Below are positions 1-58,822 of a stretch of DNA of 60,357 bases, piece by piece. Origin of the DNA: Patescibacteria group bacterium (GTDB lineage: Bacteria > Patescibacteriota > Minisyncoccia > Phycocordibacterales > JAKFXT01). Where the stretch lies: NCBI GenBank assembly GCA_038063555.1, contig JBBTUX010000008.1, positions 1 through 60,357 of the forward strand, given 5' to 3'. Each line of letters begins with the position of its first letter. The stretch's first letter is position 1. The notes under the pieces were generated by a model that worked only from the letters and a program-made list of their open reading frames with translations, was not told where the DNA came from and ran no database searches. The translations under genes and the position numbers were made by a program.

Positions 1-256
1 GTTGCAGAGCCCCGATGCCCTCCGTGCCGTGCGCCTCGTAAAACGCGGCGTTCGGTTTGTAGGCGCACACGAGGTCCTTTGTCGCTTTCACGATCGCGCG
101 GTTGAACTTGACGACGGTGTTGGCGATGCTCACATCACATTCATTGCCGCCTACGTGCGCGGACTCGGGAATCTTCTTGAACTCGCTGTCGAGCCCCACG
201 CAGACGAAATTGCCACGAGACCACTGAGCTTCCAACATACGCCGGAAATGACGCAT
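1..256 (-). CDS. pyrF: orotidine 5'-phosphate decarboxylase, type 2 (first 85 codons; continues off the left edge)
   Basis: Own translation of the minus strand from ATG at 256: MRHFRRMLEAQWSRGNFVCVGLDSEFKKIPE...AYKPNAAFYEAHG. This matches the VGLD..KKIP and AYKPN.AFYE motifs of type-2 PyrF. GGAG lies 7 nt upstream of the ATG. GC-rich. Confidence 0.75.
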   Translation of the reverse strand, partial: MRHFRRMLEAQWSRGNFVCVGLDSEFKKIPESAHVGGNECDVSIANTVVKFNRAIVKATKDLVCAYKPNAAFYEAHGTEGIGALQ

Positions 257-344
257 CTTTACTCTCCTTATCCTTGTCAGTCGCGGGATGCGACCAACCT
301 AGAACTACTAGGCAAAACCCTATATGAAAAAAAAACAAAGTCAA

Positions 345-2594
345 TTATTTCGCCACCGCTAACGCTTCATCAAAGCGAACTGATAAAACTTTTGAAAATC
401 CATCACCTCCCATGGTAACCCCGTAGAGAATCCCAGCCCGACCCATAGTCTCCCTGTTATGAGTTATCAAAATTAATTGTGAATGTTTAGATAATTCTTC
501 AATCATGTCTCCGTACTTGCGAGAATTAGCTTCATCAAGCGCGGCGTCTGTCTCATCAAGTATGATAAATGGCGGTGGATTCACTTGAGAAATAGCAAAA
601 AGTAGAGCAATTGAAGTTAGCGCTCGCTCACCCCCTGAAAGCATTGACAATCCTTTTATTCTTTTATTGGGAAGTGATACTGAAACATCAATCCCCTCTT
701 CTAACTCTTCTCCTACAACCTCTGCGGTTTCATCTTCTAACTCCAAATCAAAATCCGACTTACGACGGCGACGTTCTGGTTTAATTGTAAATAAAGAAGC
801 CTTTCCTCCACCAAACATCAATTCAAAAAATTCTTGAAATGCTTTATTTATTTTTTCTATACCAATTTTAAATTCATTTTCTAACTTTTCTGTTAATTCT
901 AATATTAATCCATCTAAAGTTTCTGCTGATTTTTCTAAATCATTTATTTCTTTTTCTAAAAATTTATCACGACTAACCACCTCTTCAAATTCTTTTTTCA
1001 CATCTTCACCTCCTCCAGCGCCGGCTTCCTCCAAACGGATTTTCATCCTTTCTATCTTCTTTCTTTTTTCTTCTTGTTCTTCCCTTTTTATAACTGAAGT
1101 TTTGTCATCTGTTTTATAATGCAATGCTGAAAGTCCGAGTAGGGCTTGTGCTTCTTGTAATTCGTTTTTAAAAGCAGATTCATCACGTAAAAGTTCATTG
1201 CTTCTAGCTTGAAAAGAAAATAGTTTTTGATTAAGCTCACTTCTTTTTTGCATTAAGACAAAAAGCTCACGCTCCGCTACTCGTCCACGTACATTTTCCT
1301 CTTCGTACTTAGATCTAAAGAGTTGATATTCTTCTTTTATTTTTTTAACAGCAATCTCCGACTTGTTTAAAATCTCTATTAATTCATTTTTCTTTTTATT
1401 AAGACGCCCGATTTCATTTTTAATTTCGGTAATAGAATTATCGCTTCCGCCTGATTCTTTTTTATCCTTAATAAACTCATTAAATTTAAACACTATTTCC
1501 TCAATTATGTTTTTAATAAAAGAAATTGTATCGTTATTTTTAGCCGTTTTTGCGACATTTTCCAAATTTTTACCTAACTCCTCCAATTCACTTATTGGAA
1601 CAGAGATATTTAAATTACCCTTAGCATTTCCAACGCTTCTCTCTAACAATCTCTCTTCCGCCAAAAGTTCTCCTTCAGTACGACTTAAATTATTTCTACT
1701 TTCATTTTCTTCTTTTTCCAATCTCTGTAAATCTCTTTCAATGCGCAGAAGGTCATCTCTCTTTTCTTCTTCTTTTTCCGATTTCTCTATAATTATTTTA
1801 TATTCTTCAATTTTTTTTTCAACAATTTTTAATTCATGCTCTGGTTCACTTTTTTCATTTTTTATTTTCTCTTTCGTTAAATGTAAATATTTTTCTTCGT
1901 TTGCAAGATAATCTTGATAATGATTAAAAAGTTCTTCGCGTAAATCTTCTGCTTTGCGCACCTTTTCAACCTGCTTTTCAAGAAATTTTATATGCGGCGT
2001 TATTTCCTTACGCAAACCCTCAACTTGTTTTATATTATCTTTAGTTTTTTCTAATTTTCTCTGACTTTCTTCTCTTTTATATTGATATATTTTTAAACCT
2101 AAAGCATCTTCTATCATATTTCGCTTTTCTTTTATGGATGCGCTCAAAATTCTATCCGCTTCGCCTTGTGAAATTATGTGATGCCCTGTGACGCCGATAT
2201 TGGCTGAGGACAAAAATTCCATTATATCTTTTAAGCGTACATGCGAACCATTTATAAAATACTCATTTACTCCATCTCTGTGCACCACTCTCTCAAGAGT
2301 TACTTCATCAAAATCTATATTAAAAATTTTTTTAATATTATCAAAGGTAAGTTTTACTCCCGCCCTATTCATCTTCGAAGCTGACTTTGAACCATTCCAA
2401 ATCAAATCTTCCCCGCGTTTTCCGCGCATTGACTTCATTGACTGCTCTCCTAAAACAAAACGAAATCCTTCAGCCACATTACTTTTTCCTGAACCATTTG
2501 GTCCGACGATTCCTGTAATTGGGACGTCAAAAGCGAAATTTGCCTTTTTAGCAAATGATTTAAATCCGTTTAATTCTAGAGATTTTAGATACAT
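345..2594 (-). CDS. smc: SMC-family chromosome segregation ATPase, unusually short (749 aa), no recognisable hinge
   Basis: N-terminus MYLKSLELNGFKSFAKK..GPNGSGKSN (Walker A), C-terminal LSGGE signature and ILDETDAALD (Walker B), K/E-rich coiled coil between them. Confidence 0.85.
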   Translation of the reverse strand: MYLKSLELNGFKSFAKKANFAFDVPITGIVGPNGSGKSNVAEGFRFVLGEQSMKSMRGKRGEDLIWNGSKSASKMNRAGVKLTFDNIKKIFNIDFDEVTLERVVHRDGVNEYFINGSHVRLKDIMEFLSSANIGVTGHHIISQGEADRILSASIKEKRNMIEDALGLKIYQYKREESQRKLEKTKDNIKQVEGLRKEITPHIKFLEKQVEKVRKAEDLREELFNHYQDYLANEEKYLHLTKEKIKNEKSEPEHELKIVEKKIEEYKIIIEKSEKEEEKRDDLLRIERDLQRLEKEENESRNNLSRTEGELLAEERLLERSVGNAKGNLNISVPISELEELGKNLENVAKTAKNNDTISFIKNIIEEIVFKFNEFIKDKKESGGSDNSITEIKNEIGRLNKKKNELIEILNKSEIAVKKIKEEYQLFRSKYEEENVRGRVAERELFVLMQKRSELNQKLFSFQARSNELLRDESAFKNELQEAQALLGLSALHYKTDDKTSVIKREEQEEKRKKIERMKIRLEEAGAGGGEDVKKEFEEVVSRDKFLEKEINDLEKSAETLDGLILELTEKLENEFKIGIEKINKAFQEFFELMFGGGKASLFTIKPERRRRKSDFDLELEDETAEVVGEELEEGIDVSVSLPNKRIKGLSMLSGGERALTSIALLFAISQVNPPPFIILDETDAALDEANSRKYGDMIEELSKHSQLILITHNRETMGRAGILYGVTMGGDGFSKVLSVRFDEALAVAK

Positions 2595-2605
2595 CCAATT
2601 AGAGA
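2543..2605. repeat. direct repeat copy 1 (covers smc start codon plus first 17 codons plus 11 nt of leader)
   Basis: 60/63 identical to 3309-3371 (mismatches at 2571, 2597, 2604). Confidence 0.9.
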
Positions 2606-2735
2606 TAGGGTAACAAAAAAAACTATATATCTCGCGAGCTAGACGCGAGCTACCTGATTATCGCATGTAAGTTCAACCATAATTCGTTAATTATAATATA
2701 TTGTGTCCGAAATTTCTAACAGAAACACGCAATAT

Positions 2736-2966
2736 TTAGTTCTTTCTTATCACTTTCAAATACTCGCTAGTTGAAATATTAAGGGTGCGCAGATTATTAC
2801 GAATAATAAATACTGGCAATTCTTTGTCTCGCGGCAAAACAATTGGCCGATTCAAACCTTTTTTAGAATAAATTCTGTGGTCGCCTTCTTCTCGCAAAAA
2901 AATGCAACCAATTTCTAAAAGAAATATCTCAAACTTTTTCCAATGCACCGGTGCAAGATGCGGCAT
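2736..2966 (-). CDS. hicA: HicA-like mRNA interferase toxin
   Basis: 76 aa with ..REEGDHRIYSKKGLNRPIVLPRDKELPVFIIRNNLR.., the YcfA/HicA pattern (G[SD]H .. vP.h). Lies 9 nt downstream of the hicB-like gene. Confidence 0.6.
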   Translation of the reverse strand: MPHLAPVHWKKFEIFLLEIGCIFLREEGDHRIYSKKGLNRPIVLPRDKELPVFIIRNNLRTLNISTSEYLKVIRKN

Positions 2967-2974
2967 AAAAAAGT

Positions 2975-3250
2975 TTAAACAAGGACTGGAACGGGAACCC
3001 TTTCACTTCCTTGCTTCACCAAAACGGGCGGGTTCCACTCTTTTTTCTTTTTTTGCCAACCAAGCGAGAAAAGGACTTCATCAAGCGTCCCACGACGACT
3101 AATTTCTTGCAAGAAAATAGACGACGCTTCAATAAAATTTTTCTTGGCTTCGGCGATTGTTTTGCCAGAAGTTGAAAGATCTAACGCCGGAGTATAGGCA
3201 ACGTAACGATTTTTTTCCTTCAAAAATAGAACTGGTAGAACGTAATTCAT
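2975..3250 (-). CDS. hicB: HicB-like antitoxin (UPF0150 fold)
   Basis: 91 aa with ..YVAYTPALDLSTSGKTIAEAKKNFIEA.., typical of the HicB N-terminal domain. Paired with the hicA-like gene. Confidence 0.6.
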   Translation of the reverse strand: MNYVLPVLFLKEKNRYVAYTPALDLSTSGKTIAEAKKNFIEASSIFLQEISRRGTLDEVLFSLGWQKKKKEWNPPVLVKQGSERVPVPVLV

Positions 3251-3543: not shown

Positions 3544-3573
3544 TTGACAAATAATAGATATATATGATATAAT
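3544..3573 (+). promoter_or_regulatory. near-consensus sigma70-type promoter
   Basis: TTGACA (3544-3549), 18-nt spacer, TGaTATAAT (TATAAT at 3568-3573). Confidence 0.7.
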
Positions 3574-3579
3574 TAAGAA

Positions 3580-3759
3580 CGAGACGAGGAAAGCGGCGAC
3601 ACAAGAGAAAAAGAAGCGCTGGCAGATTGGGACGAGGTGAACAATAACCGTCTCGAGCAACGCATTATCGCTCGCCACGGTCGCCGTCCCGTAATCGCTT
3701 GATCATCTGTCTTCCTTTTGCAACACCCCCCCCCGCCTCGTGCGGGGGTTTTCGTTTTT
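3580..3759 (+). ncRNA. candidate ~180-nt small RNA of unknown class
   Basis: Sits between the consensus promoter and an intrinsic terminator. GC-rich, contains no ATG, and has internal complementarity (GCGGCGAC/GTCGCCGT, GAGACG/CGTCTC). Confidence 0.5.
3726..3759 (+). terminator. intrinsic terminator
   Basis: CCCCCGC-ctcgt-GCGGGGG followed by TTTTCGTTTTT. Confidence 0.75.
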
Positions 3760-3774
3760 AAATTTAGAAATTTT

Positions 3775-3897
3775 TAGCATAGTAAAATCGATAAGATGCG
3801 CGGCGCGGGTAGGACCAATTTCTGGAGACGTATACAAATACGGCGTAAGAAATTAGCGGGCACCCGCAACAAAGCAGATTACGATTTTACTATGCTA
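3775..3897. repeat. 16-bp perfect inverted repeat (TAGCATAGTAAAATCG) enclosing 91 nt of GC-rich sequence, overlapping the rnc stop codon
   Basis: Arms at 3775-3790 and 3882-3897. The interior has the GCGGGcaCCCGC hairpin. Confidence 0.7.
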
Positions 3898-4588
3898 GCC
3901 AACCTTTTTTTTCTAATGCTCTTTTTGCCGCATCCTGCTCTGCTTCTTGTTTACTCCTCCCCTCACCCCCAGCTACAAGCTCATTCCCCAAATAAATCCC
4001 CACTTTAAAACATTTGTCATGATCAGGTCCCACTTCTTCCAATGTTTTATAACTTGGTGTAATTCCCGCGCGTTCCTGTGCTTGCTCCTGAAAATGACTT
4101 TTTTTATCAAGCCATGTTTTTTCTGCCACAATTTTATCAGTTAAAGGAAAAACGTATCTTGCGATAAATTTTGTTGCCAAATCATATCCTTGATCAAGGT
4201 AAATTGCTCCAACCACTGATTCAAAAGTGTTTGCTAAGATTGAGTCGCGAGCACGCCCCTTATCTTTAGCTTCTCCTTTAGAAAGAAGTAGAAATTCTTC
4301 CACGCCAAGATTTTTAGAAACCTCTGACAAAGTAACCGCATTCACCAAAGCTGCCCTGTAAGCTGTTAAATCTCCTTCATTGGCTTTGGGATATTTTTCA
4401 AATAAAAATTTAGTAATCACTAATTCCAAAACAGCGTCTCCCAAAAATTCTAGACGTTCATTATGATTTGAGGTGTTTCCTTTGTGTTCATTCAAATAAG
4501 ATCGGTGCGTAAAGGCCTCCTTTAGCAATTTTTTATCGCTAAAAGTTATGCCAATTTTTCCTTCGAATTGTTCAAATTTTGGTAACAT
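3890..4588 (-). CDS. rnc: ribonuclease III
   Basis: HRSY..NERLEFLGDAVLE signature followed by a C-terminal dsRBD (..GEGRSKQEAEQDAAKRAL). Confidence 0.9.
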   Translation of the reverse strand: MLPKFEQFEGKIGITFSDKKLLKEAFTHRSYLNEHKGNTSNHNERLEFLGDAVLELVITKFLFEKYPKANEGDLTAYRAALVNAVTLSEVSKNLGVEEFLLLSKGEAKDKGRARDSILANTFESVVGAIYLDQGYDLATKFIARYVFPLTDKIVAEKTWLDKKSHFQEQAQERAGITPSYKTLEEVGPDHDKCFKVGIYLGNELVAGGEGRSKQEAEQDAAKRALEKKGWLA

Positions 4589-4689: not shown

Positions 4690-5586
4690 TTACTTTTTCA
4701 GTAAAATATCGACGGCCTTGGTTACAATTGGCAAAATATCATCATACAAATTAAGCTCAATCACTTCCTTTAATTTAAACCACTTAGCATCGTCCAATCC
4801 CCCACTTTCCCCCAGATGTAACTCCCCGTAAGGAGATTTTGCCAAAAAATACATTACCTGCTTTCGAATTTTGCCGTTTTCTGGGTCATTGGCAATGTAT
4901 TCATTCATAGAAAGTTCTTTTTCTATTGCTATATCAAGTCCAATCTCCTCTTTAATTTTACTCTTAGTTCCATCTTCAATTTTTTTATCTTTCTCTATCT
5001 TACCCTTAGAAAGAGTCCAGTGTCCGAAAATATCGTGTACAAAAGCTAAATATATTTCCCCTTTATGTTTAGCGTAGACCACCGCTCCGCCCAATTTCTG
5101 AATAGGCATATTTTCGTAAGGAACATTAGGGATTTTCTTTTTTTTAGAAACCTCATCTTTTCCCGGCTCCCCAATTTCCTTATATACCGCGCCCAATACA
5201 CCGTTGACAAACTTACCGGAATTTTCTCCACCATAAGTTTTGGCAAGTTCAATCGCCTCATTGATTGCAACCTTAGCCGGCACTTCTTTCCTATCGGCAA
5301 AAAGAAGTTCATACAGGCCAATCCGTAGAACATTTCTATCAATGGTAGATATTCTATCAAGTGGCCAATCTGGCGCCGCTTTTTCTATAATTTTATCAAT
5401 TTCGTTTCTTTTTTTGAGCACGGTTTCACCAAGATTCTTCATAAATGAAAAATCACTCATGCCGGGAGCAAACTCCTCAGCATTACGTTTAATTACATTT
5501 ACCAAATCTTTATCCGCGCGACCCATAAAATCCCACTCAAAAAGTGATTGGAGGACAATTGACCTAGAAAGATGCCTATTTGCCAT
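4690..5586 (-). CDS. nusB: NusB antitermination factor fused to a C-terminal Nudix-fold domain
   Basis: N-terminal ~140 aa are NusB-like (..RSIVLQSLFEWDF.., INEAIELAKTYGGENSGKFVNGVLG). C-terminal ~130 aa carry a degenerate Nudix box GKIEKDKKIEDGTKSKIKEEIGL. Confidence 0.75.
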   Translation of the reverse strand: MANRHLSRSIVLQSLFEWDFMGRADKDLVNVIKRNAEEFAPGMSDFSFMKNLGETVLKKRNEIDKIIEKAAPDWPLDRISTIDRNVLRIGLYELLFADRKEVPAKVAINEAIELAKTYGGENSGKFVNGVLGAVYKEIGEPGKDEVSKKKKIPNVPYENMPIQKLGGAVVYAKHKGEIYLAFVHDIFGHWTLSKGKIEKDKKIEDGTKSKIKEEIGLDIAIEKELSMNEYIANDPENGKIRKQVMYFLAKSPYGELHLGESGGLDDAKWFKLKEVIELNLYDDILPIVTKAVDILLKK

Positions 5587-5705
5587 TTTTATGTAATGAA
5601 CTTAGAGAGAAACCCAATATACTGAACACGATACAACTAATACTGAATACAGTGTACTGAATTTCACTATTTTGATTTACCCGCCAAAATTTTGCTACGC
5701 AAAAC

Positions 5706-5939
5706 TTAGGCGGGCGAGCCCACCTCTGCCTTCTCTTTGGCTTTAGAGGCCTTCTTTGAGACCGCCTTAACCATATCAATGACTACTCTGCCATTGTATT
5801 TGCCACAACTTGTGCAAACACGATGAGGAATATGCACAGCGCCACAATCGGCGCATTTTGAAAAACGCGCGCCTATTAGGGCGTGATGCGAGCGACGCTT
5901 TCTGGTCGCCGAACGATTTATCCTCATTCGAACAGTCAT
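5706..5939 (-). CDS. rpmF: 50S ribosomal protein L32
   Basis: ..RSATRKRRSHHAL.. followed by two CxxC pairs (C.DCG...HRVCTSCG.YNGR). Confidence 0.85.
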   Translation of the reverse strand: MTVRMRINRSATRKRRSHHALIGARFSKCADCGAVHIPHRVCTSCGKYNGRVVIDMVKAVSKKASKAKEKAEVGSPA

Positions 5940-6004
5940 AGAGGAGAGTATACAAAAATAGGGCTAATTTGCAAGAGTTTTCAAAAAATTTATAGAAAAT
6001 TTAA

Positions 6005-6040
6005 AAGGGCGCCCTCCTTATAGCGCCCTGTCTCTGTTGA
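6005..6040 (-). terminator. intrinsic terminator of the 6054-6332 gene
   Basis: On the minus strand, AGGGCGC-loop-GCGCCCT followed by TTTTAAATTTTC. Confidence 0.55.
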
Positions 6041-6053
6041 TGCTGATCGAAAC

Positions 6054-6332
6054 CTATATCGATGTCCCGAGTCGCCTCTCAAGAATTTGCTTGACCACTG
6101 CATCATCAAGAGGTTCTTGGCAATTCAGAACATAAAAAGCATTGGTGTGACCCCTTTCGCAACTCTGCCGATTGGGACACCCAACACAAAGCGATGGCGA
6201 TGCACCAAGCGAAGCCACCATTCCGGGCCTCAAAGCGCCGGGCACATCTTTTAATATTTCTCTCAAGCGCTCTGGTGTCCATATGGTTTGAGGGAGTGGC
6301 GATGACCAGCCCCCATTCAACAACGTCTGCAC
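6054..6332 (-). CDS. hypothetical small Cys-containing protein (93 codons, GTG start)
   Basis: GC-rich island. GGAG lies 6 nt upstream of GTG at 6332. The longer ORF-track start has no RBS. Confidence 0.45.
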   Translation of the reverse strand: MQTLLNGGWSSPLPQTIWTPERLREILKDVPGALRPGMVASLGASPSLCVGCPNRQSCERGHTNAFYVLNCQEPLDDAVVKQILERRLGTSI

Positions 6333-6500
6333 GTTAATCTCCTTTTTTCTGTGCAGGTTAAAGTATTGATACAGTTTCCCGTATCTCCGACCTTGGAAAG
6401 AACATCTTCCTCGGCTCCCTTTGTTCGTATAAACGACCAAAGGGAGCCGAAAAAATTAATACTGCCACTTTTAGATATCATTGTCAAAGGATATGTGAAA

Positions 6501-6526
6501 GGGCGGTGGAAAAACTCCCACCGCCC
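6501..6526. terminator. GC-rich hairpin between the two island-D ORFs
   Basis: GGGCGGTGG-8 nt-CCACCGCCC. Confidence 0.5.
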
Positions 6527-6552
6527 CTATTTACGTTTAGGTCCGCGACCAA

Positions 6553-6714
6553 TTACACGGCCTCGGCTCGAACCGTCTTTTCGCTTGGGATTGCCAACGC
6601 TTGAGCCACCTGATTGCGCATCAAGGCCCCGTGTTGAGCCAACCCATGAGGCGGCAGATCCGGAAGGCCGCATTCGCAAAGATCTGCAGGAAGAACTTTT
6701 CTTTCGTTTTGCAT
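6553..6714 (-). CDS. hypothetical 53-aa protein (below the ORF-track cutoff)
   Basis: Own translation: MQNERKVLPADLCECGLPDLPPHGLAQHGALMRNQVAQALAIPSEKTVRAEAV. GGGAG lies 8 nt upstream of ATG at 6714. Confidence 0.35.
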   Translation of the reverse strand: MQNERKVLPADLCECGLPDLPPHGLAQHGALMRNQVAQALAIPSEKTVRAEAV

Positions 6715-6844
6715 TACCTATACTCCCTCTATGTAACAAAAAAGAAAACGAGCGGCGACATGCCGTTCGTTGCTCCAAATTTAACACGACAGCGATTATA
6801 AGTCAATTATTTTTGTTCTCTTGTTCTTAAGAACAATAGAGTAA

Positions 6845-7459
6845 TTATCTTTGTTTTGGGCGTATGTTTTTACAAAAAGTTTTTCGGTGAATGGAGCTTA
6901 GTCCGTGTTTTTTTATTAAACTTATATGTTTTTTTGTGCCATAACCTTTGTTTATTTCAAATTCGTATTTAGTATGCTTTTTCGCCAATCTTTTCATCAA
7001 TTTGTCTCGGAAAACTTTGGCCACAATTGAAGCTAGAGCTATAAGCAAATTCTTTTCATCCCCTTTTATAATTGTCTTTTGATTTTTGAATCCTTTAGGG
7101 GCTTTCAGGGAACCGTCCAGAAGAATTTCACTATTTTTTGGATTTATTTTTAGTTTTTTCAGTCCCCGGGCAATCGCTTTTGCGATTGCCCGGGTAATAC
7201 CAAACTTATCAATATCTCTAACGCTTCCAAACATAACCGCAAATTCAATAATTTTTTCATTTTTTATTTTTTCAAAAATTTCCTCGCGCTTTTGGGGTGA
7301 AAGTTTTTTTGAATCTCTAAATCCCCTCCCTCTCTTCAAACCCCTAAAAATGTTAAACACCGAGTGTCTAACATTTTTAGGGATAGTAACGATTCCAATT
7401 GTAACGGGTCCTGCAAGAGGTCCTCTCCCCGCTTCATCTATTCCGACAATATATTTCAC
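6845..7459 (-). CDS. rnhB: ribonuclease HII
   Basis: N-terminus MKYIVGIDEAGRGPLAGPV. Confidence 0.9.
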   Translation of the reverse strand: MKYIVGIDEAGRGPLAGPVTIGIVTIPKNVRHSVFNIFRGLKRGRGFRDSKKLSPQKREEIFEKIKNEKIIEFAVMFGSVRDIDKFGITRAIAKAIARGLKKLKINPKNSEILLDGSLKAPKGFKNQKTIIKGDEKNLLIALASIVAKVFRDKLMKRLAKKHTKYEFEINKGYGTKKHISLIKKHGLSSIHRKTFCKNIRPKQR

Positions 7460-7601
7460 TTTTTAATTATACACAGGAGATTCCTTTCTTTTTAGGACAA
7501 AAAAGGATACTATTAAAAGTGGCTCGCTCTTTTCAGGCTTGGACAGCTGTCTTGAGCTAGCTCCAACCGCGTCAACTGACGCGCAACCCAAGGAGAAAGA
7601 C

Positions 7602-7703
7602 ATGAGAAACCGCCACACCGTCAGTACCGCGCCTCCGGCCGCCGCCGCCGCCGCGAACACCGTCCAGGCCAAGTTGAACGCCGACCGGCGCAAGGCAACC
7701 TGA
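7602..7703 (+). CDS. candidate 33-aa peptide (MRNRHTVSTAPPAAAAAANTVQAKLNADRRKAT), or part of an sRNA
   Basis: GC-rich island. GGAG lies 6 nt upstream of the ATG and a terminator hairpin lies 27 nt downstream. Confidence 0.25.
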   Translation: MRNRHTVSTAPPAAAAAANTVQAKLNADRRKAT

Positions 7704-7729
7704 AGAACCAAGTCCAGCCCAAGGAGGCA

Positions 7730-7770
7730 AGCCCCAGGCGCACAACGCGCTCGGGGCTTTAAATTTTCGC
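7730..7770 (+). terminator. intrinsic terminator
   Basis: AGCCCCAGGCGC-loop-GCGCTCGGGGCT followed by TTAAATTTTCGCTTTT. Confidence 0.6.
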
Positions 7771-7815
7771 TTTTAGATTTTTATACGAAAAATACAAATA
7801 AGTTATAATGCCTAA

Positions 7816-10800
7816 ATGGCAAAATTTACTCATCTCCACACTCATTCTCATTACTCCTTGCTTTCAGCTATTCCCAAAATTCCTGAATTGGTGGGAATTG
7901 CCAAAGCGGAAAAAATGGAAGCTCTTGCCTTAACTGATAATGGAAATTTATATGGAGCTATTGAGTTCTATAAAGAATGCAAAAAAGCAAAAATAAAACC
8001 AATTATAGGCGTAGATTTTTATATTTCTCCGAGAAAAAGAAGCGACAAGGAACACAATTTGGACGATAAATACAGTCGTATAATACTTTTAGCTAAAAAT
8101 TTCAAAGGTTATCAAAATCTCATAAAACTCGTCACTCTTTCAAACTTGGAAGGTTTTTTTTATAAACCAAGAATTGATAAGGAACTTTTAGAAAAATATA
8201 AAAATGGGTTAATAGCCATACTTCCTGCTTTTAATAACGAGGTTTCCAAATCTCTCAATAATTCCAATGAAAAGCAGGCGGAAGAAAAACTGCTTTGGTA
8301 CAAAAATACCTACGAGGAAAACCTGTATTTAGAAATCACCAAACACAATGACATAGAAAATCATGCCAAATTAATAGAAAACATAAAATCTTTGGGAGAA
8401 AAATGTTCTGTAGAACTGGTGGCGTCGCATGGTGTTTATTATTTAAAACCCGAAGAAAAAAGAGTTCTGCACGTGGTTGAATCCATTCAAAACAATACCC
8501 ATGAGCCATACGAAGATAGTGGTGGAGATTTTTCTTTTTTGGATGAAAAAACGATTCTCAAAAATTTTGAAAATGAGCCAAGAGCGCTTGAAAATAATCA
8601 AAAAATCGTTGATGAGTGCAATTTGGAATTGGAACTTGGCAAATGGACTTTCCCGAAACTTAAAATTGAAAGTGGTAAAACGCCTGACGAAGAATTGCGG
8701 GACATAACCTACAAAGGACTGGGTTTTAGAAATTTGGAAAAAACAAAAGAAGTAATAGATCGCATTGAATACGAACTTGGTATCATAAAAATGAAAGGAT
8801 TTGCTCCATATTTTTTAGTGGTAGCTGACCTTTTAAAATATGCTCACAATCATGAAGTACTTAGCAATATTCGTGGTTCTGTTTCAGGTTCTCTTGTCAC
8901 CTATTTATCCGGTATTACCAATATTAATCCCATTGAATACGAAATTCCTTTTGAAAGATTCTTAAACCCGGAACGTCCTGGTGCGCCAGATATTGATATG
9001 GATTTTGCTGATAATAGGCGTGACGAAATGATTGAATACGCCAAAAATAAATACGGGTCCACACACGTAGCGCAGATTGGAACCTTCGGAACAATGATGG
9101 CCCGCGGAGCTGTGCGAGATGTTTCTCGCGCCTTGGGTTACCCCTACGGGGTCGGCGACAGAATTGCCAAATTAATTCCTTTTGGCTCACAAGGATTTCC
9201 TATGACAATTGATCACGCTCTTAAAATAACGCCAGAACTTGAAGAATTGTATAAAAAAGAGTCAGATATTAAAGAAATAATTGATATGTCAAAAAGAATT
9301 GAAGGCAATGCGAGGCATATTTCAATTCATGCCGCTGGGGTCGTAATGTCGCCGACAAACCTTGAAGAAACCGTTCCGATTCAACTTGACCCAAAAGAAA
9401 GTGGAAGAATTATTACTCAATACGACATGTATTCGGTTGAAGAAGTTGGTCTTTTGAAATTTGATTTTCTGGGACTTGGCAATTTGGCCATAATTGCTGA
9501 CACTTTCAAATTAATTGAGCGTTTTCACGGAATAAAACTTTCTATGGATAAAGTTCCAATCGATGACAAGAAAACTTTCGAAATGCTGGCTCGTGGCGAA
9601 ACATCTGACACCTTTCAACTTAATGGAAGCGGTATGACAAGATTTTTAATGGATCTAAAACCAACGACAATTCATGATATTAACGCCATGGTGGCGCTTT
9701 ACAGGCCTGGTCCCATGCAATTTATTCCTGATTACATAGCCAGAAAACACGATCCGAAAAAAATACGCTATTTAGATCCTGCACTGGAACCAATATTGCA
9801 AAAAACTTATGGAATTCTGGTCTATCAAGACGATCTTTTAATAATGGTTAACCGTTTAGCTGGATATTCCTGGGGCGAAGTAGATAAATTCCGTAAAGCG
9901 GTCGGTAAAAAAATTCCAGCGGAAATGGAGGCGCAAAGAGAGAATTTTATTAAAGGAGTGGTAAAAAATTCTAAGTGGAGCGAGAAAAAAGCGACTGAAC
10001 TTTGGACTTGGATAGAACCATTTGCCGCCTATGGATTCAACAAAGCTCACTCGGTTTCTTATGGTTTTATCGCTTATCAAACCGCTTATTTAAAAGCCAA
10101 TTTTCCCGGTGAATATATGACTGCGGTATTGACTGAAGAATTGGGCGAGGTGGAAAAAGTGGCTTCCAGTATAAAAGAATGTAAAAGAATGGGTATATCG
10201 GTTCTTCCCCCCAATATCAATGAGAGTTTCAAGGATTTTACTTTAATTAAAGATGGAAACCTGCCCGCCGCCCGCCTGCAAGAAAGCGGGCAGGCGTCGT
10301 TTAACTCCACGGCGCAGGCAGGAAAGGACACAATTCGTTTTGGGCTTGGCAGTATTAAGAATTTTGGTGAAGGTATAGCTCAAATAATCATTGACGAAAG
10401 AAAAAAGAATGGACGTTTTTCCTCTTTAGCAAACTTTTTAAAACGAATCAAAAATAGAAACTTAAATAAAAAATCTCTGGAAGCGTTGGTTTACGCCGGC
10501 GCCTTGGATGATTTTGCTGAACGCGGAATAATGCTTGGCAATCTTGAAGCCCTCCTTGAATTTAATAAAGAAAATCAAAAAGATGATAATCAAACCTCTC
10601 TTTTCGGCGCACTTTCGCAAAACGGCGATGAATTAACTCTAAAAACAATGCCCTCAATGGCAAAAGACGAGAAATTAAAATGGGAAAAAGAATTGCTCGG
10701 ACTTTATTTATCGGGACACCCACTTGATAAATACAAAGAAAAACTGGAGGGACGCGCCATGACCATAGAAAAAATAACCACGCAAATGAAAGAAGGTATG

Positions 10801-14070: not shown

Positions 14071-14104
14071 ATTTCTTGAATTACTATCCAAGTATAAAAT
14101 GGTG

Positions 14105-14130
14105 CCGGAAGCGCGCGAACGCGCTTCCGG
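14105..14130. terminator. GC-rich hairpin downstream of the lipoprotein gene
   Basis: CCGGAAGCGCG-cgaa-CGCGCTTCCGG. Confidence 0.5.
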
Positions 14131-14148
14131 AACACCCAAACGAACTAC

Positions 14149-15177: not shown

Positions 15178-15213
15178 AAGACCTCCTTTGAATTTCGGTT
15201 TTGATTCGTTTGA

Positions 15214-15249: not shown

Positions 15250-15335
15250 AGTTTCAATGTACTTCTTCCCCTTCCGGTTTTGCCGAAAGTTGATTGAAGA
15301 AAAATTTTTTCCTCCACTCAACTTTCTACAATGTT

Positions 15336-46998: not shown

Positions 46999-47100
46999 TT
47001 ACAAAATTATAACACGATACTTTTTCTATTATTTTATATATTTGACAAAACCTTACTTATTATGCAATGTAATTTAAACCCCAACCAGAAAGGAAACCCC

Positions 47101-47571
47101 ATGGACTGGGAAAAAGTAAAAGAGTTCTTTTTCACGGCAATGATGCAGGGATGGGCGGTGGCGGGAAGCAAAAAAATAAAGATCCCCGATATGCCTGGAT
47201 ACAAAGCCATCGCCTTCCGAGAGGGTGACTTTTATCTTCTCGACCGTTACTGCGTAACGCCCAACTCGCTGAAATCGGCTGGGACAACAACCATCTGGTT
47301 CCGAAACGACCCGATTTGGGTCATGAATTACGAAGGATTCTACGAAGAAAGAGCAATCATACCCCTAAAGGAAGCTCTCTTCTTCAGTTACCGGACGGGC
47401 CAATTTGTTGGCGGTCGTGGGCCAAAGATTTATGTCGATGGCAACATGATCTATGTGAATCAGTCACGCCACAACGAATTCCAGGAGTTCGATGGCATCG
47501 AGGAAATCTTCGATGGAAGCAAAGAGGAATCCCTTGGCAACCACAAATACTCGGGAATGTCTCTCATATGA
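47101..47571 (+). CDS. GC-rich hypothetical cytoplasmic protein (156 aa)
   Basis: Start set at MDWEKVKEFF (ATG at 47101) with GAAAGGAA upstream. Followed by a terminator. Confidence 0.55.
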   Translation: MDWEKVKEFFFTAMMQGWAVAGSKKIKIPDMPGYKAIAFREGDFYLLDRYCVTPNSLKSAGTTTIWFRNDPIWVMNYEGFYEERAIIPLKEALFFSYRTGQFVGGRGPKIYVDGNMIYVNQSRHNEFQEFDGIEEIFDGSKEESLGNHKYSGMSLI

Positions 47572-47594
47572 ACAAGGTGGCCCTATGACCCACG

Positions 47595-47625
47595 CCGCGA
47601 CGCAAGTCGCGGTTTTCTTTTTCTT
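47595..47625 (+). terminator. intrinsic terminator
   Basis: CCGCGAC-gcaa-GTCGCGG followed by TTTTCTTTTTC. Confidence 0.75.
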
Positions 47626-47687
47626 ATACACTCCCCACCCGCACTTGTACTGCCCCACTCAAAGAAATTTTCCCACTACAGACTCTC

Positions 47688-47729
47688 AAGTCTTATGCTA
47701 GTGTTTTGCAAAACACTAGCATAAGACTT
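47688..47729. repeat. perfect 42-nt palindrome
   Basis: AAGTCTTATGCTAGTGTTTTG|CAAAACACTAGCATAAGACTT. Confidence 0.85.
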
Positions 47730-47837
47730 TTAGGAAATTGAAAAATAGTTTATGTCTTTCTTTTAAATCATAACTCGTTACTGAATAATCCACGCTCTAA
47801 GTAATGCCCCAATCGTAAAATAACATATAATACTTGA

Positions 47838-48835: not shown

Positions 48836-48877
48836 ATAAACAAAAATCATACGATATATCGTATGATTTTTGTTTAT
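48836..48877. terminator. 42-nt perfect palindrome between convergent genes (bidirectional terminator candidate)
   Basis: ATAAACAAAAATCATACGATAT|ATATCGTATGATTTTTGTTTAT. The 18-nt core CATACGATATATCGTATG is also at 56434-56451. Confidence 0.7.
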
Positions 48878-50027: not shown

Positions 50028-51026
50028 TTATTCCACCAATTCTAACACTGCTTTTTTGATGTTAGCAACACTTAAACCATAATGTTCCAAAAGTTCGTCG
50101 GGCGTTCCCGATTGGCCAAACTGATCATCAACTCCAATTATTTTCATAGGAACTGGATAATTTTGGGAAAGAAATTCTGCTACAGCTGAACCCATTCCCC
50201 CTTTTGCTTGATGTTCTTCCACTGTTACTACTTTACCCGTACGCTTGGCCACTTCAAAAATAGTTTTTTCATCAAAAGGTTTTATTGTTGAGAGATTCAC
50301 TACAATCATTTGAATTCCTTCGGCTTCCAATTCTTTGGCAACAACCAATGCCTTGTGCACCAATGCCCCCGTCGCCACGATTGCGGCGACGGGTTTTTCA
50401 TCTTTATTTTCAGGTTGCCAAAATATCTGCGCCTTACCAATTTCAAATGGAGTTTCATCCGTTGTAATTATTGGAGTTTTTTCTCGAGCAAGACGAATAT
50501 ACACCGGTCCAATCATCTTGGCGGCGGCAATGGTGGCTTTTTTGGCTTCAATTGAGTCACACGGAGAAATTACCGTGAGGCGAGGAATAACGCGCGTAAT
50601 GGCAATATCTTCAATGGCTTGATGCGTGCCTCCATCTTGTCCGACTGAAATACCGGCGTGGCTTCCAGCAATTTTCACATTCCTATTGTTATAGCAAATT
50701 GTAGTGCGAATTTGTTCCCAATTTCTCCCAGGAGAAAACATGGCGTATGAGGAAATGAATGGGATCTTTCCCATCGCCGCCATTCCGCTTGCAACGGATG
50801 CCATGCTTTGCTCTCCTATTCCCATTTCTATGAATCTTTCGGGAAACTTTTGTTTAAATAAATGCATTCTGGTGGATTCTGTTAAATCGGCGCAAAGCCC
50901 CACCACATTTTTATCGTTTTCCGCCGCAATCACCAATCCTTCACCAAAACCAAAACGAATGGGCATTTGTTCCACATCTTTATCAAAAAGATTTTTATTT
51001 AGTTTTTTTGAGTTTTGGTTAAGCAT
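50028..51026 (-). CDS. tkt: transketolase, C-terminal (pyrimidine-binding) subunit
   Basis: ..GIGEQSMASVASGMA.., 332 aa. Confidence 0.85.
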   Translation of the reverse strand: MLNQNSKKLNKNLFDKDVEQMPIRFGFGEGLVIAAENDKNVVGLCADLTESTRMHLFKQKFPERFIEMGIGEQSMASVASGMAAMGKIPFISSYAMFSPGRNWEQIRTTICYNNRNVKIAGSHAGISVGQDGGTHQAIEDIAITRVIPRLTVISPCDSIEAKKATIAAAKMIGPVYIRLAREKTPIITTDETPFEIGKAQIFWQPENKDEKPVAAIVATGALVHKALVVAKELEAEGIQMIVVNLSTIKPFDEKTIFEVAKRTGKVVTVEEHQAKGGMGSAVAEFLSQNYPVPMKIIGVDDQFGQSGTPDELLEHYGLSVANIKKAVLELVE

Positions 51027-56192: not shown

Positions 56193-57335
56193 TTATAACA
56201 GATGCTTTCTTAACTTGTACGCATTCCCATGTTTCAACATCCCCAAATATGATTTCATTGTTTCTCGACTTGCCTTGCCATTCATTGCCCTTAGCATCCT
56301 CCTTTTTGTTGTGTTTCTCAACACCCTGTGTCTTGCAAAATTCACCCAACCCAGGAAATCAACGCCTGATGATAATGTTTTGATAAATACTTTGTTGGGG
56401 TGAAGTTGAAGTGAAAGTTCCTTTTCTAGAAAACATACGATATATCGTATGTTTTCTAGAAGTTGATTCTTGTTTTGTGAAAGTATGACAAAATCACCAG
56501 CGTATCTTATGTAATATTTAATCTTTAATTTATGTTTAATGAATTGGTCAAATTCATTCATATAGATATTGACCAGAAGTTGAGAGGTGAGATTACCCAA
56601 GGGCAGTCCTTTCTCTTCTATTCCAATGTTCTCAAGAACATTGGAATAGGTAAGAGGGCTGAAACTACTGAAACTGTTGATTACTCTCTCTAAAAGCCAC
56701 GTTGTGTCTTTATCGGTTATGTGTTTCTTAAGAATGTTCAGCAGTATTTCTTGGTCAATTGAAGCAAAGAATTTTCTGATGTCGCATTTCAAGACAAAGC
56801 ATTGTTTAGTGTTGTTTTTTGATACCTTGTAAGCAAAACTTCTGAAACGATTCATTGCCTTGTGTGTGCCTTTACCTACACGGCAGGAATATGAGTCGTA
56901 AATAAACTTCTGGTCAAAGTAAGGATAAAGAACCCTGTGGATGGCATGGTGGAGTAACCTGTCTCTGACACTGGCCTTGTGTATGTTTCGGGGCTTGGGG
57001 TCGCTAATGTTAAAGGCGCTGTATCCTCCGTGAGTGTATGTTTTGGTTTTGAGGTCGTAGTGTAAAGACAGAATATTGTCCATCAGATTAAGCTGGAATT
57101 CTTGCACGTCTTTTTTGTGTTTTTTGCCGCGTAGAAATTCCTGCCACGCTAATAACAAATTATCAACAGAAATGATATTGTGGTAAGTGTGAACAAATCC
57201 AATTTTCTTTCCGTTAAAGCCCCCCCCCTCATCAGTTTTTGCCTGTTCTCCTGCATTTGAAAGATTGTTACATTTTGTGGTATCAATATTATCAAATACT
57301 ACCCAAGATTCATCGTCATACAATTGGACAGACAA
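56193..57335 (-). CDS. DGR-type reverse transcriptase (atypical YAGD catalytic motif; start uncertain, no in-frame ATG before the conserved core)
   Basis: GLPLGNLTSQLLVNIYMNEFD (DGR-specific motif 4), IRYAGDFVIL (motif 5), N-terminal ..NLLLAWQEF... Confidence 0.85.
   Translation of the reverse strand: MSVQLYDDESWVVFDNIDTTKCNNLSNAGEQAKTDEGGGFNGKKIGFVHTYHNIISVDNLLLAWQEFLRGKKHKKDVQEFQLNLMDNILSLHYDLKTKTYTHGGYSAFNISDPKPRNIHKASVRDRLLHHAIHRVLYPYFDQKFIYDSYSCRVGKGTHKAMNRFRSFAYKVSKNNTKQCFVLKCDIRKFFASIDQEILLNILKKHITDKDTTWLLERVINSFSSFSPLTYSNVLENIGIEEKGLPLGNLTSQLLVNIYMNEFDQFIKHKLKIKYYIRYAGDFVILSQNKNQLLENIRYIVCFLEKELSLQLHPNKVFIKTLSSGVDFLGWVNFARHRVLRNTTKRRMLRAMNGKASRETMKSYLGMLKHGNAYKLRKHLL
56425..56460. 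repeat. perfect 36-nt palindrome inside the RT coding sequence
   Basis: TCTAGAAAACATACGATA|TATCGTATGTTTTCTAGA. The core is identical to 48848-48865. Confidence 0.85.
57220..57228. repeat. homopolymer C9 (G9 on the RT strand)
   Basis: Read directly. Lies in the RT 5' region and 10 nt upstream of the avd start. Confidence 0.9.
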
Positions 57336-57601
57336 CTGATAATTTGTTTATAGAAAGCATAGAAGCAATATCTGTTGCAGGTTTTTTGCAGAAAAGTGAC
57401 AAAATTCCTTTTGTGCGTCTCGCTATCAGAAAAATAGATACCATAAAAATATTTTTGCTTGTACTTTGGGAAACAAAATCTTTGGACAATAAAAAATATA
57501 TATCTCTTTCCGAAAAACTTGACCCGATAGGGCGTATGCTCGGTGGTTGGCTTGGACAACTGCAAAAACAAAACTCCCCCACGAAAGCAGGGGAGAAATG
57601 A
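57239..57601 (+). CDS. avd: DGR accessory variability determinant (Avd), encoded on the strand opposite to RT/TR/target
   Basis: ..LPKIHRHTIGQ.. and C-terminal ..IGRMLGGWLGQLQKQ...KAGEK, resembling Bordetella phage Avd (..IPRKHG.., ..VGRILGSWIARVNRKGQAGK). TTG starts only. Confidence 0.75.
   Translation: MPVLLHLKDCYILWYQYYQILPKIHRHTIGQTTDNLFIESIEAISVAGFLQKSDKIPFVRLAIRKIDTIKIFLLVLWETKSLDNKKYISLSEKLDPIGRMLGGWLGQLQKQNSPTKAGEK
57560..57596 (-). terminator. hairpin plus U-tract immediately 3' of TR (minus strand)
   Basis: Minus strand CTCCCC-tgctttcgtg-GGGGAG followed by TTTTGTTTTT. Overlaps the avd 3' end. Confidence 0.5.
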
Positions 57602-57607
57602 GGAGAA

Positions 57608-57734
57608 TTGCGCGAGAGGCAGCAGGATTGTCACCGTTCCAGTCATTGTCGAGCCAGTTGTAGTTCGACACCACCTTGCCCTCGTTCCAGTAACCATAGC
57701 GTACGTACAGGTTGTCGTTCGTCGGGTTGCGGAA
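57608..57734 (-). repeat. DGR template repeat (TR)
   Basis: 127 nt aligning without gaps to 58073-58199. The only differences are 14 positions that are A in TR (minus strand). Confidence 0.88.
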
Positions 57735-57990
57735 ATGTGCATAATGCCTTCCAGGCCACTGCTAGTAAGGGAGCATATTTACTCAATCCACTAGCTGTAT
57801 CGAATTCCGCATCGTAATGCGATAGCACTATGCACCAAGTATCTTCATTTTTTGAAGTTTCTACACACACCACTCTATCTGAATCCGTGAACACAGATAC
57901 TCTCGATGTATGGATACTGGATTCGGCCGCCGGAAACCTTAATCTCCAGCAGATTCGCCTACTACCATTGTAATGTTATACCAAAATGAA

Positions 57991-58015
57991 AGGCCCCGCG
58001 ATATTTGCGGGGCCT
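57991..58015 (-). terminator. hairpin plus U-tract downstream of the VR and target gene
   Basis: Minus strand AGGCCCCGC-aaatatc-GCGGGGCCT followed by TTCATTTTGG. Confidence 0.6.
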
Positions 58016-58067
58016 AAGGACTAAGTCCCAAGTGCCAAAATAGGCCACAGGAACTGAGTCCACAGTA

Positions 58068-58661
58068 CTAACTTGCGCGAGAGGCAGCAGGACCGCCACC
58101 GTCCCAGTCATCGTCGAGCCAGTCGTAGTTCGACACCACCTCGCCCTCGCTCCAGCAACCACAGCGTACGCACAGGCTGTCGCTCGTCGGGTCGCGGAAG
58201 ATGTCATCCCAGAAGTACACGTAAATCGTGTTACCCTGGTCATTCTTCTTCCAGCTCTCTGGCCAAAGCGCGGGGTTTTCAACGCACTTGTCGAGAACGC
58301 TCGCGCTGACGTTGTCGCCCGCAGCATCTCGTTCCTTGCGGAGATCGTGGCCACCAGCGACTTTGCCGCCCCTCTGATTCTCAGAGAAAACGAGCTCGAG
58401 CCTTGCGTCATCAAGGTAAAGATCGTTGCCGCGCTTCTCGAGCTTCACAATGCCGGACTTGGCCGGGCTCATGCGTTCGGTTCTCTTGAACGGGAGCTTG
58501 CAGGGCACCGAGAAGTCGATCAATACCTCGAGGGCGCTGAGCACGACTCCCTTGAGCCACAACTTGAACTCCTCGAAGCGGGGACGGCCGTTGTTTCCGC
58601 CGACCTGATCCATGAGTTCCGTGAGCGGTCCCTGGAGCTCAGAGACATCAACTTTTTTCAT
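58068..58661 (-). CDS. DGR target protein (197 aa, no signal peptide) with C-terminal variable region
   Basis: Start set at MKKVDVSEL (GGAG 7 nt upstream). The C-terminus FRDPTSDSLCVRCGCWSEGEVVSNYDWLDDDWDGGGPAASRAS corresponds to the TR-encoded FRNPTNDNLYVRYGYWNEGKVVSNYNWLDNDWNGDNPAASRA. Confidence 0.85.
   Translation of the reverse strand: MKKVDVSELQGPLTELMDQVGGNNGRPRFEEFKLWLKGVVLSALEVLIDFSVPCKLPFKRTERMSPAKSGIVKLEKRGNDLYLDDARLELVFSENQRGGKVAGGHDLRKERDAAGDNVSASVLDKCVENPALWPESWKKNDQGNTIYVYFWDDIFRDPTSDSLCVRCGCWSEGEVVSNYDWLDDDWDGGGPAASRAS
58073..58199 (-). repeat. DGR variable repeat (VR)
   Basis: See TR. It ends 5 nt before the target stop codon. Confidence 0.88.
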
Positions 58662-58822
58662 AACAAAACTCCTTATGTTGTGCCAGCGGACCACCGGAAT
58701 GGTAGTCATAGCGAGGAATGGCCTCTATTGTCTTTTTTGTTAAGCCACTTTTCGCTATGACCACCCGCCTGCGCAGGCAGACTCGCAAGTCATATCAAAG
58801 ACCTAATCTATAGTAAAACAAA

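Follow-up and report, generated by a model that had tools for sequence, protein, structure and literature searches.

Positions 1 to 60,357 of contig JBBTUX010000008.1 (assembly GCA_038063555.1), hereafter the window, form a chromosomal segment of a Patescibacteria (candidate phyla radiation, CPR) bacterium of the Parcubacteria/Paceibacterota from Hainich groundwater metagenomes. Its AT-rich backbone is interrupted by eleven short GC-rich islands, and most of their open reading frames (ORFs) carry the Shine-Dalgarno (SD) sites that the backbone genes lack. These islands are real, accessory and heterogeneous, and one of them belongs to a diversity-generating retroelement (DGR). The relatives of the traceable islands are Patescibacterial and likewise GC-rich and SD-led, so the islands are probably not recent imports from a GC-rich host but a lineage-shared class of accessory genes that persists in these genomes. 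The comparison was made with relatives at about 60-80% protein identity, no sister strains being among them; the closest DnaE relative in genomes of the Genome Taxonomy Database (Parcubacteria, Paceibacterota, Zambryski-, Taylor- and Kaiserbacteria) shares 87% identity and the others at most 65%.

The GC content of the whole window is 38.5%, with a median of 37.5% over 200-nt windows. A sliding-window scan delimits eleven segments of at least 45% GC, namely 1-350, 3551-3900, 5651-6800, 7451-7850, 14051-15250 and 17501-17950 in the first half and 21901-22400, 37451-38200, 41801-42550, 47051-47700 and 57501-58800 in the second. These segments have a GC content of 0.45-0.54; the islands themselves, approximately 0.3-1.7 kb long, reach 46-58% and occupy at most 20% of the window length. 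All coordinates given for eleven GC-rich segments in the initial annotation, made from the sequence alone, coincide with these segments. Its estimate of 50-60% GC against one third for the backbone is right as a contrast, yet the figure is slightly overstated for several islands, and two of them (17485-17852 and 47060-47730) reach only about 46-47%. A contrast in codon usage is present as well: GC at third codon positions (GC3) is 0.41-0.73 (mostly 0.50-0.73) in island ORFs versus 0.20-0.42 in backbone genes. At these positions island genes use C at 0.15-0.45 and A at 0.09-0.25, compared to 0.08-0.17 and 0.30-0.43 in the backbone; the larger island genes (both DGR targets, pyrF, the phosphoribosyltransferase-like gene and I9) show C at 0.34-0.45 and A at 0.09-0.18. 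Moderately GC-rich stretches within 12430-14139 and 35680-36606 combine high GC at second positions with low GC3 and thus reflect amino-acid composition, not islands. The gene for ribosomal protein L32 (rpmF) is native and leaderless, yet GC-rich here and in relatives (0.55 vs 0.45 in L090; 0.57 vs 0.49 in L023), so that GC alone is no proof of foreignness.

Translation signals separate the same two sets of genes. A GGAG/GAGG-type motif is located 3-12 nt upstream of the start in eight of ten island ORFs, the exceptions being those at 17485 and 47062, versus none of the 52 backbone genes. An SD site had been proposed for the eight starts at 256, 6332, 6714, 7602, 15177, 22685, 37482 and 58661, and all eight bear it; the claim that the backbone lacks such sites is likewise borne out. 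In 17 of the 52 backbone genes a TATAAT-like -10 box ends 3-10 nt upstream of the start codon, mostly at 6-8 nt (for instance 7803-7808, 27735-27740, 43497-43502, 47826-47831 and 60234-60239), a spacing as expected for leaderless mRNAs, which suggests that these genes are transcribed without a leader. The default mode of initiation in this genome thus appears to be leaderless or SD-independent. The start regions of island genes (-25 to +35) also fold more stably than those of the backbone (-9.3 vs -5.6 kcal/mol, p = 0.004). GC-rich terminators mark the islands, as had been noted: among the nine terminator-scanner matches with at least six G-C pairs, eight are located within or at islands (3730-3748, 6006-6029, 17392-17430, 17817-17843, 42470-42491, 47594-47613, 57574-57595 and 57991-58015) and only one outside (50368-50393). 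The only two perfect (12/12) sigma-70 promoters in the window, 3544-3573 and 37393-37422, both drive island units.

Abrupt changes in composition in a sequence of metagenome origin could point to chimeric joins with reads of a GC-rich organism. However, the ENA assemblies for three Hainich samples have the same island junctions as the window, and so do the Logan assemblies for four runs (0-1 single-nucleotide polymorphism, SNP). The assemblies of other samples are identical to the window or one SNP or indel apart, too little variation for dN/dS to be informative. The RNase HII protein of the window recurs on a 63.7 kb ENA contig of a Hainich metagenome and further window proteins on a 202.5 kb ENA contig; these genes are also present in several Logan run assemblies. 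The recurrence of the same junctions across independent assemblies shows that the islands do not result from chimerism, and eleven short inserts, with the gene order on either side of each left intact, do not resemble chimeras either. An assembly or binning artefact, the mis-assembly against which the initial annotation had cautioned, has thus practically no probability left.

Comparison with relatives shows where the islands are lodged. The order smc-rnc-nusB-rpmF-rnhB-dnaE-aaRS (aminoacyl-tRNA synthetase) is kept in about 60 related loci, with junction spacers from 0 to 8 kb, and the order gatB-gap-...-tkt-pfkB-fba-L25-...-RF-TPR in those fba-anchored metagenome loci that are long enough to show it. 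In the Zambryskibacteria locus L090, rnc-nusB-rpmF-(NUDIX)-rnhB-dnaE are tightly packed. The gatB-gap spacer measures 148 nt in L096 and 61 nt in L103 versus 2.6 kb in the window, and the pfkB-fba spacer 79 nt in L096 versus 840 nt. The RF and TPR genes, adjacent in L096, are 5.2 kb apart in the window: the block 37340-42511 is an insertion relative to L096 that begins and ends with GC-rich units and has very AT-rich genes (GC 0.31-0.33), one of them for a beta-propeller protein, in between. None of 80 fba-anchored loci encodes a relative of the 37482, 41920, 47062 or 58068 proteins or of the DGR reverse transcriptase (RT), and the 6054-6332 ORF does not occur at its junction in relatives. Several relatives carry GC-rich, SD-led lone genes of their own at the same junctions. 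Since short spacers or other inserts stand at these places in relatives that share the gene order, the islands occupy variable junctions between conserved blocks and are part of the flexible genome. The idea of acquired foreign units therefore stands in so far as the islands are distinct and interrupt a gene order that relatives share, but not as regards uniform single-gene units: one island is part of the DGR and two look partly non-coding. In agreement with the initial annotation, repeat and domain scans gave no integrase and no common flank. The scanned ORFs contain no integrase or transposase domain, att-like repeats are absent, no island adjoins a tRNA gene (the sole one, at 33435-33508, lies away from the islands), and the only repeat found at islands is the template/variable repeat pair of the DGR.

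Three islands can be traced through homologs (pyrF, the lipoprotein and the DGR target), and all three point to Patescibacteria. The left end of the window cuts an island that on a longer contig spans 1.7 kb and comprises pyrF, a phosphoribosyltransferase-like gene and a terminator. Among the 120 best homologs listed for PyrF (71-88% identity), every named one is Patescibacterial. In a Parcubacteria locus of 44% GC (L091), pyrF and its neighbour have a GC of 0.59-0.60, a GC3 of 0.72-0.73 and AGGAGG sites, and in L090 pyrF adjoins the RNase R gene and smc, as in the window. The terminator regions that follow this operon at L001 18790-18860 and L091 11482-11548 are 88% identical over 67 nt, and the phosphoribosyltransferase genes of these loci share 27% identity in a 78-residue local alignment, which hints at cassette-like exchange within a conserved frame.

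The lipoprotein at first passed for an orphan, given that a word-indexed search of 5.8 billion proteins was empty; this was abandoned when an exhaustive HMMER search gave 46 distant homologs (approximately 27-38% identity). The 20 homolog N-termini inspected have signal peptides, in most cases with a lipobox-like cysteine. The family is a fast-evolving one of the lineage. The located homologs lie in Parcubacteria-type loci. In the Paceibacterota-like L173 the gene directly follows a sortase gene near aaRS-dnaE, with a GC of 0.59 vs approximately 0.46 and a AAAGGAGG site; another homolog matches L037 sequence about 0.8 kb from a sortase gene. L007, L040 and L023 have GC-rich lipoprotein genes at the same or a nearby position, strongly SD-led in L007 and L040.

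The third traceable island (57540-58760), together with the gene 56193-57335, is by its sequence features a DGR rather than a simple acquired gene. In such systems the template-repeat RNA is reverse-transcribed with errors at adenines, and the resulting copy takes the place of the 3' variable repeat of the target. The RT gene, 0.7 kb downstream of the target on the same strand, matches RVT_1 (E = 5.5e-24), and its product has LGNLTSQ at residue 246, the DGR [I/L]GxxxSQ motif of domain 4, which is also conserved in the L086 and L089 RTs and in that of the neighbouring cassette. The two repeats (127 nt, 89% identity) differ at 14 positions, in all cases with A in the template and G in the variable repeat. 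DGRs need a hairpin for homing; the hairpin at 57991-58015 may be a terminator and/or the homing hairpin. No Avd gene is found in the cassette, the ORF 57299-57742 being the template repeat read in frame. The catalytic box of the RT reads YAGD (Gly codon GGT, 56496-56498) compared to YADD in three homologs, so that an intact YxDD is missing, and this sequence is identical in an independent assembly. The substitution bears on the present activity of the RT, not on the identity of the DGR. Because of it, and because the variable repeat is identical in three assemblies, the cassette may be inactive or fossil, or may depend on the neighbouring RT acting in trans.

The named homologs of the target protein are all from Patescibacteria, with a GC of 0.53-0.60 in loci of 0.41-0.42 and with SD sites. 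In L086 and L089 homologous targets are located about 0.9 kb upstream of RT genes, and the repeat pairs differ only at template adenines, plus one 1-nt gap each. An AlphaFold2 model of the target (46 sequences) has a predicted local distance difference test score (pLDDT) of 86; Foldseek gave no PDB match at E < 0.001 and no C-type-lectin match, and a profile search against PDB sequences gave no significant match. Divergent lectin-fold variants can escape fold and profile searches.

A second, complete DGR is located at L177 7465-9992 (the 202.5 kb contig), just past the right end of the window and across gatB from the first. Its repeats (118 nt) differ at 20 positions, 19 of which are template A (A to T 10, A to G 7, A to C 2), and an alignment of the two RT genes over 0.9 kb shows about 82% nucleotide identity. 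Both targets have a GC3 of 0.67-0.74 versus 0.26-0.42 in the RTs and Avd. Because the targets are GC-rich and their RTs and Avd are not, we infer that GC richness belongs to the gene, not to the whole element. A cell-encoded DGR clade 2, restricted to CPR bacteria and with targets devoid of recognizable domains, has been described (Roux et al., 2021; PMC8144416). The window DGR resembles this clade in the [I/L]GxxxSQ motif of the RT, in repeats that differ only at template adenines, in a variable repeat at the extreme 3' end of a small domain-less target followed by a hairpin, and in its chromosomal location in a groundwater CPR genome, with bAvd present in the neighbouring cassette. It deviates in lacking an Avd of its own, in the YAGD box and in having 14 changes that are all A to G, unlike the usual mixture seen in the neighbouring cassette; its variable repeat is also invariant in three assemblies and its target without a C-type-lectin match in the PDB.

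Had the islands been imported recently, as single genes, from a higher-GC and SD-using organism, maybe the host of an episymbiont, their GC content, SD sites and terminators would be donor signatures that have not yet drifted. Such a history would fit the presence of the islands as inserts where gene order is otherwise shared with relatives, the sharp contrast in SD use and composition, the frameshifted 37482 gene, as expected of a decaying import, and the mostly orphan status of the island proteins; moreover, some Parcubacteria lack the anti-SD (PMC9297842), where an SD site would be a donor relic. However, all three traceable islands have Patescibacterial relatives with the same GC and SD features, and pyrF and a lipoprotein homolog occupy matching gene neighbourhoods in relatives. 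The lipoprotein has no close match among the 5.8 billion proteins, same-aquifer metagenomes included, which counts against import since closer relatives would be expected after a recent transfer out of a host phylum that is well sampled. Its SD is kept across homologs of at most 30% identity, indicating selection on the SD in its present residence, and high GC in the DGRs is confined to the target genes. We consider recent import unlikely. The proposed higher-GC or host donor thus fails for pyrF, the lipoprotein and the DGR target, whose named or located homologs do not lie in another, GC-matching lineage; the observation that the initial annotation had itself set against its proposal, homologs with the same GC and SD features in related genomes, is made for every traceable island.

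The islands might alternatively be remnants or cargo of higher-GC mobile elements from within the Patescibacteria, scattered by repeated integration and decay. The units are self-contained, with their own promoter and terminator, and inserts at the same junctions in relatives include genes judged by eye as sigma-factor-like (L054 5352-5987) and ParB-like (L053 4025-4855). DGRs are moreover thought to have spread via mobile elements (PMC8144416), which would suit this origin. It is at odds with the missing integrase, att-like repeats and tRNA-adjacent sites, with the absence of any PHROG match for island proteins, with a DGR RT and Avd that are AT-rich like the host, and with the matching neighbourhoods of pyrF and the lipoprotein homolog in relatives. 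Among the ORFs of the seven islands without homologs, three were searched in the viral collection IMG/VR, and one of these (the DUF5680 protein) in phage and plasmid collections as well; none has a relative there. We give this origin little credence.

The link between GC and SD is also seen beyond the window. In 125 related loci chosen regardless of islands, a strong SD (GGAGG or AGGAG at -4 to -15) precedes 17 of 42 ORFs whose GC exceeds the locus median by more than 0.10, compared to 88 of 1686 backbone ORFs (odds ratio 12, p = 4e-11). Such GC-rich ORFs make up 12.5% of those in the window versus 3.8% in relatives, an approximately three-fold excess. According to the survey of Tsurumaki et al. 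(2022; PMC9297842), no more than 48% of Parcubacteria carry the anti-SD motif of 16S rRNA, and the 16S 3' ends of four relatives (L008 around 783-830, L019 around 203-250, L060 and L066) read ...GTGGAATA(T/A)TTCAA..., without CCUCC. These four fall in clades of the DnaE tree other than that of the window, so that their lack of the anti-SD is not transferable to it; the 10 kb flanks on either side of the window contain no rRNA gene.

Several results weigh against a persisting, lineage-shared class. PyrF is 79% identical to its L090 counterpart compared to 47-65% for backbone proteins, and this higher conservation could reflect horizontal spread or exchange among Patescibacteria instead of residence. 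BLASTP gives no significant similarity between the window lipoprotein and the L007 and L040 genes, nor between those of L007 and L023. In the survey, a strong SD also occurs at the offset control position in 7 of 42 GC-rich ORFs (17%) vs 64 of 1686 others, and the enrichment is thus partly, not wholly, compositional; in the replicate locus set alone the link is weak (p = 0.054). The loci of the four relatives without CCUCC contain no SD-led protein-coding genes. No homolog could be traced for seven of the eleven islands, whose ORFs were compared with family libraries and with related loci totalling about 2.5 Mb (listed as such are 3580-3900, 6005-6800, 7560-7770, 17485-17852, 22377-22685, 37440-38176, 41850-42500 and 47060-47730), and these seven may be of foreign or mobile-element origin.

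The coordinates of the islands' features are collected in Table 1. Scans of the island proteins against Pfam, PHROGs and NCBIfam returned only a weak Thioredoxin_7 match, the DUF5680 match and weak pyrE-like matches. The Thioredoxin_7 match of the 41920 protein (E = 9e-6) is just under the Pfam gathering cutoff, and the hairpin that follows its gene (42470-42491) is bidirectional. The 6054-6332 protein has no match in any of the three libraries and belongs to a 90%-identity cluster of two members only; neither this ORF nor the other small SD-led ones (6553-6714 and 7602-7703) have relatives that could be found. An alanine-codon run of the 33-residue ORF shows a 3-nt (GCC) length polymorphism between samples at 7638-7640. 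In the secreted-protein gene, the frame 37482-37916 is broken at a T-run (37900-37916) and another frame runs on to 38109. The same 144-residue product appears on three contigs, from NCBI, Logan and ENA assemblies, which makes the frameshift probably real; the gene may be a pseudogene or subject to a programmed shift.

Table 1. Features of the GC-rich islands and associated elements (window positions unless a locus is named; +, plus strand; -, minus strand).
Feature	Position	Strand	Characteristics
pyrF, 5' part	1-340	-	start codon at 256; SD AAGGAG; edge of a 1.7 kb operon extending past the left window end
pyrF, full gene	L001 17204-18061		GC 0.60; GC3 0.72
Phosphoribosyltransferase-like gene	L001 18077-18796		SD AAGGAGG; weak pyrE-like matches
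Small transcription unit	3544-3756	+	promoter TTGACA-18-TATAAT at 3544-3573, extended -10; transcript of ~175 nt; terminator 3730-3748
Long imperfect hairpin	3775-3900	.	126 nt, ~55 bp; abuts rnc stop codon
rpmF (ribosomal protein L32)	5706-5939	-	native; GC 0.50; no SD; -10 box 7 nt before start
ORF, 92 residues	6054-6332	-	GTG start; SD AGGAG at 6 nt; terminator 6006-6029
ORF, 53 residues	6553-6714	-	SD GGAG at 8 nt; followed by G+C hairpin ~6501-6528
Putative Ala-rich ORF, 33 residues	7602-7703	+	SD AGGAG at 6 nt; 70% GC; hairpin 7731-7757, then T-run
Lipoprotein gene	14149-15177	-	342 residues; lipobox LLSGC; SD AGGAGG at 4 nt; GC 0.53; GC3 0.61
Putative ORF unit	17454-17852	+	-10 box 17454-17459; SD-less ORF 17485-17892; strong hairpin 17817-17843 inside 3' end of ORF
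GC-rich stretch, ~450 nt	21877-22325	+	no plus-strand ORF of at least 60 residues; TATAAT 21865-21870; hairpin and T-run 22279-22320
ORF, 102 residues	22377-22685	-	SD AGGAG at 5 nt; moderate GC of 0.41
Secreted-protein gene	37393-38175	+	sigma-70 promoter 37393-37422; SD AGGAG; terminator 38132-38175
Secreted thioredoxin-like protein, 174 residues	41920-42444	+	SD GAGG at 8 nt; GC 0.52
DUF5680 protein, 169 residues	47062-47571	+	no SD; GC 0.47; GC3 0.58; terminator 47594-47613
DGR reverse transcriptase	56193-57335	-	380 residues; AT-rich like backbone
DGR template repeat	57608-57734	-	intergenic; followed by hairpin 57574-57595
G+C hairpin	57991-58015	-	directly downstream of variable repeat
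DGR target (variable-protein) gene	58068-58661	-	197 residues; SD AGGAG at 7 nt; GC 0.59; GC3 ~0.74
DGR variable repeat	58073-58199	-	3' end of target gene, ending 2 nt before stop codon
Second DGR, target	L177 7465-8112		GC-rich; SD-led
Second DGR, variable repeat	L177 7993-8110
Second DGR, template repeat	L177 8430-8547
Second DGR, bAvd	L177 8564-8827	-	PF22296
Second DGR, RT	L177 8928-9992		intact YADD box

Some of the island stretches may not encode proteins at all. Structured RNA genes are conspicuously GC-rich in AT-rich genomes, and 3544-3900 and 21877-22325, possibly also 7480-7770 and 17454-17852, lack convincing ORFs yet have promoters and terminators. The hairpin 3775-3900 has folding z scores of -7.4 (plus strand) and -7.2 (minus strand) and a relative between rnc and nusB in L021 (7647-7769; nhmmer E = 2.5e-5), in which a change in the apical stem looks compensatory; it may be an RNase III substrate or an autoregulatory element. 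The 450-nt stretch (-172 kcal/mol, z = -3.85 on the plus strand; z = -2.5 on the minus strand) is a candidate new structured RNA. On the other hand, the unit 3544-3756, itself without a convincing protein-coding ORF, has no Rfam match and folds no more stably than shuffled sequence over 3580-3756 (z = -0.8), and 21877-22325 has no Rfam, tRNA or tmRNA match and no relative in 2.5 Mb of related loci. ARAGORN and Rfam, at gathering thresholds and up to E = 5, detect no known RNA gene in the window other than tRNA-Thr, and no homologs that would permit a test of covariation were found, apart from the one of the hairpin. As candidates for 3775-3900 and 21877-22325, SRP RNA, RNase P RNA and tmRNA were compared by eye; none fits, and Rfam lends them no support. 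One or two island stretches are probably non-coding RNA, but the assignment of all these regions to structured non-coding RNA genes is possible rather than likely and would account for at most three to four of the eleven islands.

A few observations concern the surroundings of the islands. Between smc and rnc, a gene for a HicA-like toxin (76 residues, weak Pfam match) and an adjacent gene for a 91-residue protein (2736-3250, minus strand) look like a toxin-antitoxin pair of backbone-like GC. The gene at 4690-5586 (minus strand) encodes a nusB-NUDIX fusion, here and in relatives, and some relatives have an extra GC-rich, SD-led NUDIX-like gene between rpmF and rnhB. Two long perfect palindromes with the common core CATACGATATATCGTATG, at 48836-48877 just after pfkB and at 56423-56462 inside the 3' part of the RT gene, may represent a shared operator or a bidirectional terminator motif.

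We propose that the AT-rich housekeeping genes start translation without an SD, many of them on leaderless mRNAs, and that the GC-rich islets are small units with promoters and terminators of their own, set between conserved gene blocks. These are of several kinds: a DGR, the pyrF operon, a lipoprotein, secreted and small proteins (one of them frameshifted) and probable non-coding RNA. Without the unstructured AU-rich start region, GC-rich mRNAs would need an SD, as their more structured start regions would bar the AU-rich or leaderless route, and GC and SD would thereby be coupled. The GC content and the C-rich third positions may be kept up by exchange or recombination inside a Patescibacterial pool of surface and accessory genes, through biased gene conversion, or because codon use is under selection.

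With the genomic islets known from horizontal gene transfer, the islands of the window share a deviating GC and codon usage, a position at breaks in gene order, absence from relatives and a large proportion of orphans. Unlike those islets they have no integrase, tRNA site or flanking repeats, and their atypical composition recurs in homologs of related genomes at matching positions, a persistence that amelioration after a single transfer does not predict. The backbone is similar to SD-independent systems (Bacteroidetes-type, leaderless, or the anti-SD-less Parcubacteria of PMC9297842) in its SD-less, AU-rich or leaderless starts, whereas a minority of GC-rich genes keeps AGGAGG-type sites at canonical spacing. 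A targeted literature search of limited extent found no description of such a class. Tentatively, and with rather more doubt than confidence, it can be suggested that Paceibacterota run two expression regimes, in which an SD-less, AT-rich core coexists with a GC-rich class, rich in C at third positions, that has SD sites, consensus promoters and strong terminators and whose composition is actively maintained by selection or biased gene conversion and is not a leftover of transfer. The GC-rich class would then mostly consist of surface, secreted or diversifying genes and include DGR targets but not their RTs.

In summary, we have described a set of GC-rich islets in a Parcubacteria chromosome. 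For the window itself, the annotation gains a DGR with a second cassette beside it and several candidate RNA elements. Annotation and transfer screens read atypical GC accompanied by foreign-looking signals as recent import, an inference that fails for every island traced here. If the lineage, like the four relatives, also lacks the 16S anti-SD, the SD sites of the GC-rich class would have to be read by something else than the 16S tail that normally does so. If the link between GC and SD holds genome-wide, it would provide a simple marker for the accessory and surface genes of Parcubacteria, whose host-interaction genes are largely unknown. The GC-rich set would then flag DGR targets and not the DGR machinery, and it would become testable how a largely SD-less lineage keeps the SD for a subset of its genes.

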